This document shows, in pieces, positions 19,870 through 25,272 of a DNA stretch of 64,000 bases. Both the position numbers and the translations under genes were made by a program. Location: positions 1-64,000 of the forward strand of contig CAWIMJ010000010.1 in NCBI GenBank assembly GCA_963837175.1. Direction: 5' to 3'. Source of the DNA: an uncultured Nitrososphaeraceae archaeon. Lineage in GTDB: Archaea; Thermoproteota; Nitrososphaeria; Nitrososphaerales; Nitrososphaeraceae. The notes under the pieces are model-generated. The model did no database searches. It was given only the letters and a program-made list of their open reading frames with translations, and had not been told where the DNA came from. The stretch's first letter is position 1. Every line of letters starts with the position of its first letter.

Positions 19870-20208
19870 AGCTAAATAATATAATAATTATAAGACTATT
19901 ATTAATAATATTATATTAAATATTAAATATATTAGTCGTTATAGAGACTGCTGATAAGTAAGTATGCCTATGTAGTCATATTATGATATCATATACATAT
20001 GCTTATAATTATTTTAAGGCGATGACTTTTTTTGTGGGAATTAGTATTTTATCTTTGATGTGTTATGTTAATATGCAATTTCATAATATTTAAATTAATT
20101 TTTTGGAGAATGTGACAAGAATATAGTGATATTAATGCTATTTAGCTAACGATAAAATAAAATATCGGTCTAGCAATGGATGATTTTGTAGCCCGTGTAT
20201 ATGAATGA

Positions 20209-20360
20209 AGCCCGGTCGAACCTGGATTATTTAATTTAAGCAGGTGCCGAATCTAGTGGCCAATCTATCTCTCCAAGGTAGGGCTATGGATTTCAGGCTC
20301 TGGATCTGTCATGAGAAAAGAAACCTGGAGACAGCAGTTCGAATCTGCTCCGGGCTACCA
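20209..20360 (+). tRNA. tRNA-Gln(CTG) with three introns (20219-20251, 20264-20287, 20304-20322) and encoded CCA
   Basis: Joined exons give a 76-nt cloverleaf: AGCCCGG TC GTCT AGTGGCCAA GGAT T TCAGG CT CTG GA CCTGG AGAC AGCAG TTCGAAT CTGCT CCGGGCT A CCA; each junction has a BHB-type motif. Confidence 0.93.
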
Positions 20361-20395
20361 TTTTTATTGTAATATTTAACTGCTCTCTAATATCA

Positions 20396-21991
20396 TTATT
20401 TTGGACCTGCGTTTCGTATTTCCTCAGATACTTCTCCAAACTTTTGAAAGTTCTTGACAAATAATGCTGCAAGTCTATTGGCAGATAAATCATATTTGTT
20501 CTTATCAGACCACGTATTGCGTGGGTCTAGAATTTCAGACGGAACTCCGGGGCATGAAGTAGGAATATCGAGGTTAAAAATATCATTGTGTATAAAGAGT
20601 GCTTTCTCCAATTCTCCATTCAACGCGGCTGTTACCATTGATCTGGTATATCCGAGATCCATTCTCTTTCCCACTCCATAAGGTCCTCCAGACCAGCCTG
20701 TATTGATCAAATATACTTTAGTATTATGTTTGGAGATCTTTTGTCCAAGCATAACTGCATATTCTCTAGCATGCAATGGCATAAATGGAGCACCGAAACA
20801 TTGCGAGAATGTTTCTTTTGGTTCCGTGATCCCTCTTTCTGTTCCTGCCAATTTGCTAGTATATCCTGACATAAAATGATACATAGCACCTTCTTTTGTC
20901 AATTTGGCAATTGGTGGCATTACCCCAAAGGCATCTGCAGTTAGAAAAATGATAACATTTGGGTGCCCAGCTATGCTTGGAATTATTGCACCAGGTATAA
21001 AGTTGAGAGGATAGACTACTCGAGTATTTTCTGTAAGGCTGCCATCAGTAAAATCCGGCTCTCTTGTATCGCTCTTAAGAACAACATTTTCCATTACTGA
21101 ACCAAACCTTATGGCATCCCAAATTTGTTGTTCATTTTCCTTTTTCAGATTTATGCATTTTGCATAACAACCACCTTCAAAATTGAAGATTCCCTTATCA
21201 GACCAGCCGTGTTCATCATCACCAACAAGATGCCTATAACGATCAGCGGAGAGTGTTGTCTTTCCTGTACCAGATAATCCAAAGAACAACGCAGTATCGC
21301 CGCTGTTGCCTACATTAGCTGAGCAGTGCATAGGAAAAATGCCCTTACTAGGTAAAATGTAGTTCATTACAGAAAACATAGCTTTCTTGATTTCACCAGC
21401 ATAAGAGGTTGACCCTATTAGAACAATCCTTTTCTTAAAGTTTATAATAATGAATGTCTCAGTTCTTGTTCCTTCTAGTTTAGGTATTGCTCTAAAGTCG
21501 TTCACCGATAATAAAGTAAATTCGGGCTCATGACTTTCGAGTTCTTTTAATGTAGGACGAATAAAGATTTGAGTTGCAAAAAGGGTATGCCATGCTTTAT
21601 CTGTAATTACTCTTATTGGTAGGCGTATATTATTATCTGCTCCAACAAAACCATCAAAAACAAAGAACTCTTTTCCTTCTATAATTTTTTTCATTCTGAG
21701 AAAAATCTTTTCAAAATTTTCTTCCGAGATTGAATGGTTTATCTTCCCCCAGTCTACAGAATTATGGGAATATTCATCATCAACAATATATTTATCATCT
21801 GGGGATCTGCCTGTAAATTTGCCGGTTTTTACAGAAAAAGCTCCAGTAGAAGAAAGATTTCCCTCTTTTCTACAAATAGCGATCTCTATTAATGAAGGAA
21901 CTGAGAGATTTCGATGTAGTTTACCGAGTCTAATATCCATTTTTTCAAGTTGCATAAGACATCTTGCGCGTGGATTGTAGCTCATTAGCAT
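20396..21991 (-). CDS. pckA: Phosphoenolpyruvate carboxykinase (ATP)
   Basis: [47 protein letters not shown]; exact start uncertain. Confidence 0.97.
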
Positions 21992-24217: not shown

Positions 24218-24540
24218 GATTGAGGAAAAGACCTGAATGATAATGAAATTTTTTAGATTTAGTTATTAATATCCATTTTACAACTAACTTATTTTATAAA
24301 ATGTAGAAAATATAGAATAATATATACTGTAGAGCTTCAATCCATATGAGACAAGTAAACTTTCCAATCTGAGGAAGCCAAAAACTCAATTGTTTTCTAA
24401 TATTGATATTATGTAGCTGGAGATTTGGCTGTACATAGATATGTGTTGTCGAGTCTGATTCTAATTCTGATGATTGTTTTCGCACATTAATTTTCTTCTT
24501 TGTTCTCATTGAACTTACAAAAAAGCAGTAACATCAGAAA

Positions 24541-24615
24541 CGAGCCCGAAGGGCTTCGATCCCTTGATCTGCGGTTCCGAAGACCGCTGCGATGTCCTAA
24601 CTACGCTACGGGCCC
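24541..24615 (-). tRNA. tRNA-Arg(TCG), intronless, CCA not encoded
   Basis: GGGCCCG...GCGGT CT TCG GA ACCGC...AAGGG ATCGAAG CCCTT CGGGCTC G cloverleaf. Confidence 0.95.
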
Positions 24616-25272
24616 ATCTAATGTTTATTCTTCAAGGGCTCGTCCTATATCAACGGAACTAATATGTACATTTCGGTCAACTGATCTCTATGGTTGTTGA
24701 GAACTTGAGATAACATACTATGTTTATTTTGTTCTATTGGAAAACCTTATTTTTTATTCATTATAATTTTTGACTAGGTTGATAGCAATAATAAATATGA
24801 TATTTTGTATTATCTGTTTTTATCTATAACAATACCTCCATTATGATATTGGAATAATACTAACTAGTAACCTTTTCTCCAATTTTTATTCTAATTCCAC
24901 ACTTTCATAAACAATAAATATGGTTGATAAAGCATAAATGGGTCGAGAAGATTTATAATTACCGTTATTCAATATACATAATTTGACATTGAAAAACTAA
25001 TAATAATTCAACCACTGGCTAATACATATATCCAAATTTTTATTAACTATCCATTCTTTGAACATTCAACAATATTTAGACTCAACTTAACATCACAATC
25101 AATTTAACTAGCCAGTTTTCATTATTCAAATTATATTCTTATTAGAAAAGTTGAAAGAACATTGAATGATTGGAGTCTCATTCCGATCGAACTGTATCAT
25201 CAAAGCAAAATCAAAAGCCATTTCAGATAAGTAAATTTCTTAAAGGATATAAGAAGTGTAGATAGTATTTCT

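Follow-up and report, generated by a model that had tools for sequence, protein, structure and literature searches.

The motif at which a tRNA intron is cut can, when the intron lies near the 5' end of the gene, need bases that are held by the very stable acceptor stem, and this raises the question of how such an intron is spliced at all. The question is posed sharply by a tRNA-Gln(CUG) gene of a soil Nitrososphaeraceae archaeon (genome G000, contig CAWIMJ010000010.1), which we studied within a 64-kb stretch of DNA (hereafter called the window) and which carries three introns, the first of them at position 10/11. The leader of this gene contains an 8-mer, GTAGCCCG (20188-20195), that matches CGGGCTAC (20351-20358) as its exact 8-bp complement and is separated from A20209 by 13 nt; the letters at these positions confirm the perfect match that had been described in an earlier note on this DNA. 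The same note had read the leader as holding the 3' acceptor strand and thereby freeing tRNA nt 5-8 for the splice motif, and we find this reading supported by co-occurrence, covariation and the balance of predicted folds. We therefore regard it as probable, with appreciable room for doubt, that the 8-mer has a function in the pre-tRNA leader, where it would stand in for the 5' acceptor strand as a decoy or placeholder and so enable the intron-1 motif. Such a decoy would explain how an intron so close to the 5' end is tolerated. The features of the locus are the following:

20148..20169, plus strand: promoter-like A/T-rich block AACGATAAAATAAAATATCGGT, a BRE/TATA candidate, conserved in family orthologues
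20188..20195, plus strand: leader copy of the 5' acceptor strand, GTAGCCCG, the putative decoy, with its partner at 20351-20358
20196..20208, plus strand: 13-nt leader spacer that separates the copy from the mature 5' end, its sequence not conserved in orthologues
20209..20360, plus strand: tRNA-Gln(CUG) gene with three introns
20209..20218, plus strand: exon 1, tRNA nt 1-10, with the true 5' acceptor strand at 20209-15 and nt 5-8 at 20213-16
20219..20251, plus strand: intron 1, 33 nt, position 10/11, class HBh', its boundaries placed by comparison with intron-less orthologues
20252..20263, plus strand: exon 2, tRNA nt 11-21, D stem 5' strand and D loop, from the sequence and ARAGORN
20264..20287, plus strand: intron 2, 24 nt, in the D loop, from the BHB rule as read from the sequence, with its helices in the MFE fold and its removal required by ARAGORN
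20288..20303, plus strand: exon 3, tRNA nt 22-37, with the anticodon CTG at 20300-02, from ARAGORN
20304..20322, plus strand: intron 3, 19 nt, at the canonical position 37/38, reported by ARAGORN as i(37,19) after deletion of introns 1 and 2
20323..20360, plus strand: exon 4, tRNA nt 38-76, with the T arm at 20333-49, the 3' acceptor strand at 20350-56, A73 at 20357 and an encoded CCA at 20358-60
20351..20358, plus strand: partner of the leader copy, CGGGCTAC, inside exon 4 (tRNA nt 67-72, N73 and C74)
20361..20365, plus strand: T run TTTTT right after the CCA, a candidate archaeal terminator judged by its letters

Oligo-T runs serve as terminators in archaea. In its unspliced form the gene is detected neither by ARAGORN nor by an Rfam gathering scan. 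Once 20219-51, 20264-87 and 20304-22 are deleted in silico, ARAGORN reports a tRNA-Gln(ctg) of 76 nt that starts at 20209 and has an encoded CCA, and the gene is by this analysis contiguous and in normal order; retention of any one intron yields a wrong gene or nothing. Orthologues that lack single insertions fix the boundaries of all three introns, and intron-less orthologues match the intron-1 junction. Intron 2 has a central helix H of 20258-61 with 20282-85 and a helix h' of 20265-70 with 20276-81, and the sequence of intron 3 leaves its boundary ambiguous by one A and places a C34.A mismatch in its central helix.

For the BHB motif we relied on the motif classes as restated in the accessible text of bioRxiv 10.64898/2026.10.13.758758 and defined it by a 4-bp central helix, formed by the four exon nucleotides before the 5' bulge and the intron nucleotides before the 3' bulge, by bulges of 3 nt and by a flanking helix. 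At intron 1, H pairs tRNA nt 5-8 (CGGT, 20213-16) with GCCG (20246-49), the two 3-nt bulges are CGA (20217-19) and AAT (20250-52), and helix h' joins 20220-24 to 20241-45; there is no exon helix h, nt 1-4 being unable to pair with nt 12-15. The register of H at nt 5-8 is the same in 104/104 intron-bearing CUG orthologues, with all four pairs present in 101 and three of the four in 3, and h' measures 3-11 bp in 104/104, with double changes at all 5 tested h' pairs. The partner of T8 in H is G or A among orthologues, and one locus (L025) has a compensatory H set, CCGT/GCGG. By these features of its sequence, intron 1 is an archaeal BHB intron of the clean class HBh': it has both bulges, H and a flanking helix, and its removal leaves a canonical tRNA.

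Three of the four H bases are at the same time acceptor-stem bases, so H cannot form while the acceptor stem is closed. The earlier note had claimed exactly this conflict between the intron-1 helix and the acceptor stem, and the shared register extends it to all 104 orthologues with the intron. Among the three introns of the gene, only intron 1 has a motif that clashes with the acceptor stem. As to the enzyme, G000 contains two genes of the PF01974 endonuclease family with open frames of 193 and 216 aa, which fits a candidate alpha/beta pair of an alpha2beta2 endonuclease. According to the accessible text of PMC4090602, this alpha2beta2 enzyme is the one assigned to Thaumarchaeota, and the two-subunit type cuts relaxed motifs.

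The true acceptor stem consists of AGCCCGG (20209-15) with CCGGGCT (20350-56), i.e., 7 bp against the 8 bp of the leader helix, just as had been proposed. Since the partner strand at 20351-58 is shared, the copy helix and the acceptor stem are mutually exclusive. A count on both strands of the 64-kb window finds the 8-mer nowhere but at those two places; the expectation is 0.20 per window (100 shuffles), and 2 of the 100 shuffles gave two matches. A scan of the G000 assembly recovered 35 tRNA-like genes, for each of which we determined the longest contiguous complement between the leader (-60 to -1) and the 3' strand plus trailer. It measures 3-6 bp in 33 of them, and the longest ones are 8 bp at tRNA-Gln(CUG) and 10 bp (with 2 G.U) at tRNA-Arg(TCG). 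The tRNA-Arg(TCG) gene lies in the same window, and its leader match is absent in the 20 orthologues that could be resolved among 25 loci, with at most 5 bp in those of the same genus, so matches of such size can arise without conservation. A general leader/3'-end pairing across the tRNAs of G000 was rejected, and a conserved copy was found only in the two Gln genes. A strict T-arm scan for more hidden tRNAs gave 1 candidate, which is not a tRNA.

If the copy serves intron 1, the two should be found together, and co-occurrence with the 10/11 intron in orthologues was a check set beforehand. We scored a copy where at least 7 contiguous pairs with at most 2 G.U covered at least 5 of nt 66-72 and lay within 130 nt upstream; a contiguous-helix criterion was chosen because duplex energies overlap between the classes (-16.5 to -9.8 kcal/mol for intron-bearing and -13.3 to -4.9 kcal/mol for intron-less loci) and because they also count trailer-only pairing. 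Our CUG set comprised 130 loci in the family and order, outside the 12 weakest family matches and three unpublished genomes (G055, G093, G114), and 124 of these could be resolved, namely 104 carriers of intron 1 and 20 that lack it; 6 loci were left out as unresolved (L021, L075, L111, L113, L115, L121) and another two for leaders of less than 60 nt (L107, L112). Among the 122 loci with a leader of at least 60 nt, the copy is present in 100/102 with intron 1 compared to 2/20 without it. The outcome of the check is thus favorable, with a copy in nearly all carriers of the intron, its absence from most loci without it, and changes that preserve pairing. Both intron-bearing failures (L045 and L055) have 6 bp, and the two intron-less loci with a copy have it at -95 (L024) or adjacent to the gene (L029). 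Three apparent exceptions in genus g12 were resolved by a perfect 8-mer found 104-114 nt upstream, behind the usual promoter block.

The same association is seen beyond this gene and beyond the family. The tRNA-Gln(UUG) paralogue, on contig 16 of G000 and outside the window, shares the 10/11 intron and bears its copy in a near-tandem arrangement, GCCCGG-A-AGCCCGG. For its 30 loci, we read leader sequences by eye for a copy of at least 6 bp located 1-2 nt before nt 1; such a copy occurs in 26/27 with intron 1 (the 27th has 5 bp) as opposed to 0/3 without. Intron and copy are both found in the UUG genes of genera g2 and g15. Ten other families of the order contributed 73 loci, of which 71 were resolved (all but L209 and L261, with L250 reclassified by eye as intron-less). 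The copy lies within 25 nt of nt 1 in 24/26 of those with the intron; the intron-less genes have it near the gene in 3/45 and anywhere in the 130 nt in 6/45. Weak copies characterize four intron-bearing loci (L045, L055, L189, L190), and copy-like leaders occur in the intron-less genes L029, L242, L250 and L251 and far upstream in L024, L227, L234 and L241.

Both states, i.e., copy plus intron or neither of the two, are found within genus g15 and within families f13, f10 and f4. In g15, 5 loci have the intron and the copy and 15 have neither, and the leaders of the latter are shorter by about 12-15 nt. We had considered that the intron-less g15 genes might contain decayed relics of the copy, and rejected this because the element in question (ACAGCCG/GTAGCCG) is also found upstream of the copy in intron-bearing g15; the copy is therefore simply missing, and the leader shorter, in the intron-less genes of this genus. 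One locus (L019) has lost intron 1, kept introns 2 and 3, and has no copy. Copy and intron are thus repeatedly present together or absent together, in a number of distinct groups and in two paralogues, and the counts, coming from relatives that are not independent, are not probabilities.

To follow the pairing itself, we aligned 96 distinct intron-bearing CUG loci with MAFFT and treated the copy with nt 67-74 as the helix. In this alignment 96.2% of cells are paired, compared to 21.7-48.0% after the partner has been shifted by 1-3 columns. At the three inner positions that vary, C and U are the only alternatives and always face G (UG 85/CG 11; CG 88/UG 6; CG 93/UG 2). The outer pair is GC in 71, AU in 12, GU in 2 and unpaired or other in 11 loci, and its 3' partner is trailer nt 74, outside the mature tRNA, so mere copying of the mature 5' strand cannot explain the pairing. 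Double-change cells number 13 compared to 3.2 +/- 1.5 in shuffles (0/500 reach 13), and 2 pairs show a double change where 1.0 is expected, a value reached in 22/500 shuffles. The AU cells of the outer pair probably stem from one event in a g13 subclade and, with relatives not being independent, the double changes probably reflect only 2-3 events.

Further cases point in the same direction. Genome G038 has C in place of G at acceptor position 6, and the 3' strand, the H strand of the intron and the leader copy have all changed accordingly in both Gln genes. The copy reads AGCTCG in most genomes, with the true 5' strand invariant as AGCCCGG, and it is kept where the flanking leader sequence is unalignable across the order. 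RNAalifold, when run on the 96 sequences, picks the invariant acceptor stem and not the leader helix, and this counts against the decoy reading. Comparison of the orthologous genes shows a leader/3'-end pairing that is under selection and tied to intron 1.

Folding of the precursor with and without the leader was the other check set beforehand. For the G000 transcript (20188-20360), the leader helix is part of the MFE fold, and the BHB fold has -54.7 kcal/mol compared to -51.9 kcal/mol for the acceptor fold. Without the copy, the order is reversed, with -45.2 kcal/mol for the BHB fold and -51.6 kcal/mol for the acceptor fold. The ensemble probabilities with the copy are 0.96-1.0 for the leader helix, 0.001 for the acceptor stem and 0.10 for H, and the value for H is 0.001 without the copy. 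Across 98 orthologues, the median of E(motif)-E(acceptor) is -0.3 kcal/mol (-4.5 to +3.0) with the copy, with negative values in 61, and +5.6 kcal/mol (2.4 to 8.1) without it, with negative values in 0. The acceptor fold is thus predicted to win in 98/98 when the copy is missing, and the two folds are about equal when it is there, as the leader reading had led us to expect. In this secondary-structure model, the copy is shown to shift the balance by about 6 kcal/mol toward the splice-competent fold.

Two aspects of the model count against the decoy reading. The copy only equalises the folds, the BHB fold being favored in 61/98 orthologues and P(H) amounting to 0.10. The 2D model also predicts no switch back to the acceptor stem, which counts against a simple switch: after in-silico splicing of G000, the leader helix is still favored by 0.8-4.9 kcal/mol, and across 95 orthologues the median E(acceptor)-E(leader helix) is the same, +0.7, whether intron 1 is present or removed. 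Because the modeled leader helix outlasts splicing, release of the copy would have to rest on tertiary folding of the tRNA body or on RNase P.

The CAAATA-type core of the promoter block is found 25-31 nt (mode 28) upstream of the first nucleotide of the copy at 85/98 loci, and at the other 13/98 a nearer chance match of the regular expression falls in the A/T-rich spacer. The spacer between copy and tRNA measures 1-13 nt (1-6 nt in 92/100 orthologues) and 96-106 nt in genus g12, where the leader is about 100 nt long, the distance from promoter to copy is held and the 8-mer is still perfect. With a fixed distance to the promoter and a variable distance to the tRNA, the copy is tied to the promoter. 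Archaeal start sites are located about 25 nt after the TATA element. The observed spacing fits a putative start at about 20188 and a copy located at, or within a few nucleotides of, the 5' end of the transcript. In the UUG paralogue, by manual count, another upstream block takes its place at about the same spacing.

RNA data for the locus come from metatranscriptomes. Two contigs from two studies begin at about 20201-20206 and thus without the copy, a weak hint against its transcription given that contigs cannot show starts. One of the two ends 6 nt short of the 3' end of the gene. Spliced joints (20218-20252) were not found in 4 RNA runs, which yielded unspliced contigs only, a data type that drops rare forms, in which mature tRNAs are poorly recovered and which speaks only for the stretches that it covers.

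Taken as a decoy, the copy would pair in the primary transcript with the 3' acceptor strand together with N73 and N74. This would free the true 5' strand so that nt 5-8 could pair with GCCG in intron 1 and form the 4-bp central helix of the HBh' motif, at which the two-subunit splicing endonuclease would cut at 10/11. With the intron strand removed, the 3' strand would be recaptured by its true 5' partner to give the cloverleaf, and RNase P would then take off the leader, intron 1 having been spliced before 5' maturation. If splicing depends on the leader, intron 1 would have to be cut before the leader is lost, and this would set the order of the steps. That the copy is transcribed, that the events follow this order and that the copy is released afterwards is what we infer for this pathway.

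The same helix could have been selected for a different purpose, namely to hide the acceptor end from RNase P, from 3' processing or CCA enzymes or from the synthetase until the tRNA body is complete, with no help to the intron-1 motif. Such masking would account for a conserved and covarying pairing, it would need a leader helix that is favored even after splicing, as the 2D model has it, and it sits well with a P(H) of just 0.10 in the presence of the copy. Yet the copy tracks intron 1 specifically: L019 and 15 g15 loci keep introns 2 and 3 but have no copy and a shorter leader, intron 1 is the one intron whose motif competes with the acceptor stem, and other G000 tRNAs with introns in the D loop or anticodon have no such leader. 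We therefore consider masking unlikely, though it deserves more weight than the other alternatives. A DNA-level promoter element, such as an initiator or factor site with a chance likeness to the acceptor strand, would explain why the copy keeps 25-31 nt to the promoter block and anything from 1 to 106 nt to the tRNA. Against this, the copy covaries with trailer nt 74 and follows changes in the acceptor some 160 nt further downstream, and it varies only between C and U opposite G; moreover, the UUG paralogue has its own copy of its own strand behind a different promoter block, and the copy is absent from intron-less genes with the same promoter block. We thus consider this explanation very improbable.

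Equally little probability remains for the idea that the copy was left behind neutrally when the intron arose, e.g., by a short tandem duplication of the 5' end, and has no present function. The near-tandem repeat GCCCGG-A-AGCCCGG of the UUG gene and of deep-branching CUG genes would suit such an origin, and copy-like leaders are found in the intron-less loci L029, L250 and L251. However, the copy has been kept across the entire order amid leader sequence that cannot be aligned, its changes preserve pairing and some of them are compensatory, and in g12 the 8-mer has stayed perfect across an insertion of about 100 nt. The earlier note had also raised, as its less likely reading, a fourth intron of 19 nt at position 2/3, in which case the copy would be the true first exon and the intron would lie between it and 20209. 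The direct repeat AGCCCG ... AGCCCG, 19 nt apart, invites this view in G000 alone. Among orthologues, the spacer is 1-6 nt in 92/100, which leaves no room for a BHB intron, and in g12 it is 96-106 nt, and the copy reads AGCTCG in most genomes as opposed to the invariant AGCCCGG of the true strand; spacer lengths and these C-to-U changes, which are never seen in the true strand, exclude a fourth intron for practical purposes. In addition, no BHB motif or central helix can be drawn at the boundaries, and ARAGORN finds a full tRNA starting at 20209, so that we give this reading hardly any credence.

Mutually exclusive helices are known from attenuators and riboswitches, and leader/trailer pairing affects RNase P in bacterial and eukaryal pre-tRNAs. 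The decoy reading shares with attenuators and riboswitches that one strand has two partners and that a flanking segment sets the choice, but it involves no ligand and no transcription read-out, the outcome being access of the splicing endonuclease. Thaumarchaeal tRNA genes with several introns, like relaxed BHB motifs, have been described (PMC8450103 and PMC4090602, accessible text). Introns 1-3 of our gene, with their 3-nt bulges, 4-bp central helix and a candidate two-gene endonuclease, are ordinary members of the non-canonical BHB introns of Thaumarchaeota and Crenarchaeota as far as these are described in the accessible literature. Accounts of BHB introns (PMC8450103, PMC4090602 and bioRxiv 10.64898/2026.10.13.758758) mention no leader element that pairs with the 3' acceptor strand in their accessible parts. 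The word "leader" has 0 occurrences in the accessible text of bioRxiv 10.64898/2026.10.13.758758, and the available portions of the other papers use it only for split or permuted tRNAs and ordinary leaders. In the accessible parts of the full-text literature, we found no account of an acceptor-strand copy in a leader (including PMC4090602, PMC3218864, PMC4033280, PMC2237900, PMC8450103, PMC3695527 and the bioRxiv preprint). The leader copy is thus apparently an undescribed accessory of a known splicing system.

Split and permuted tRNAs of Nanoarchaeum, Caldivirga and red algae resemble our case, by the accessible text of PMC4090602 and PMC4033280, in that sequence outside the tRNA pairs to give a splice-competent fold. 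In these systems the flanks pair with each other, form the BHB motif itself and are cut off by the endonuclease. The copy described here is instead predicted to pair with a strand of the mature tRNA in a plain 8-bp helix without bulges that would be no endonuclease substrate, and to act by competition. We accordingly did not assign the locus to the leader/trailer BHB of split or permuted genes, the helix of 20188-95 with 20351-58 being continuous and its 3' strand belonging to the mature tRNA. For Methanopyrus kandleri, it has been deduced that the ends are trimmed before the introns are removed (PMC3695527, accessible text). That system likewise concerns an archaeal pre-tRNA with leader, ends and introns, and the order that we propose for intron 1 is the opposite one.

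The locus may exemplify a general rule, for which we see the chances as evenly balanced. Wherever a BHB motif draws on the 5' acceptor strand, the intron would require a decoy copy of this strand at the very 5' end of the primary transcript; the precursor would be bistable, splicing would precede RNase P in reverse of Methanopyrus, and the decoy would be gained and lost together with the intron, making it a new class of cis-acting RNA folding helper in Nitrososphaerales. Because intron and decoy come and go together, the arrangement bears on the gain and loss of tRNA introns, and if the reading holds, the predicted order of processing is opposite to that measured in another archaeon. The sequence signature would then also help gene finders to place the true 5' end of a gene that ARAGORN and Rfam miss. 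It would further provide a tractable test system, and cultured ammonia oxidisers of the family seem to share the arrangement.

The association of a 10/11 intron with a leader repeat of the 5' acceptor strand extends to the second tRNA-Gln gene of this assembly, which lies outside the window:

G000 contig 16, about 125255-125352: paralogous tRNA-Gln(UUG) gene

This paralogue also carries a 10/11 intron (18 nt) and has GCCCGG as a near-tandem copy 1 nt ahead of its 5' end, and both features are kept throughout the order. Copy-like leaders are likewise retained in four tRNA-Gln genes of relatives that are devoid of the 10/11 intron (L250 and L251 of family f7, L029 of f12 and L242 of f10), where they read AGTAGCCT or AGTCTGG adjoining nt 1, the first nucleotide of the mature tRNA, or GGCCCGG at -22. 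These leaders could reflect recent intron loss, chance or some other use of the pairing. Two CUG genes of genus g15 that also do not have this intron (L069 and L071) show TGTAGCG immediately before nt 1, a 5-bp complement that may be what is left of a truncated copy.

Three loci of genus g12 (L014, L052 and L062) have leaders of about 100 nt (features 45-114 nt upstream of the tRNA). An intact promoter block and a perfect 8-mer are found far upstream, and hairpin-forming sequence separates them from the tRNA. At L014, ATAGTTCG at -45, between the perfect 8-mer and the tRNA, resembles a second, decayed promoter-plus-copy module, so that the module may have been duplicated in tandem.

The anticodon intron of tRNA-Gln(CUG) has a C34.A mismatch in its central helix (CUCU opposite AAAG; window 20298-20323). 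Since orthologues with shorter anticodon introns form the central helix in the same register, this BHB is relaxed too. Metatranscriptome contigs contain the gene wholly unspliced (window 20203-20354 and 20206-20460), and one of them extends at least 100 nt beyond the T run, which could be due to read-through, to an antisense transcript originating at the neighbouring gene or to carried-over DNA.

Another leader match lies in the same window:

24540-24616, - strand: tRNA-Arg(TCG), 75 nt, no intron
about 24637-24646, 21-30 nt upstream of the gene: leader complement of tRNA-Arg(TCG)

This leader can form 10 bp (2 G.U) with the gene's own 3' strand and trailer, and position 71 is T in G000 but C in relatives. 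No conservation of the match was found among 20 orthologues.

Elsewhere in the assembly, an intron-less tRNA on contig 47 has its 5' acceptor 7-mer, GGTCATG, repeated 220 nt upstream (about 118465 and 118685). There are two genes of the splicing-endonuclease family (PF01974):

C41:35700-35930: PF01974 gene
C50:224579-224833: PF01974 gene

A tRNA gene at C50:223117 and one of these PF01974 genes are separated by about 1.4 kb.
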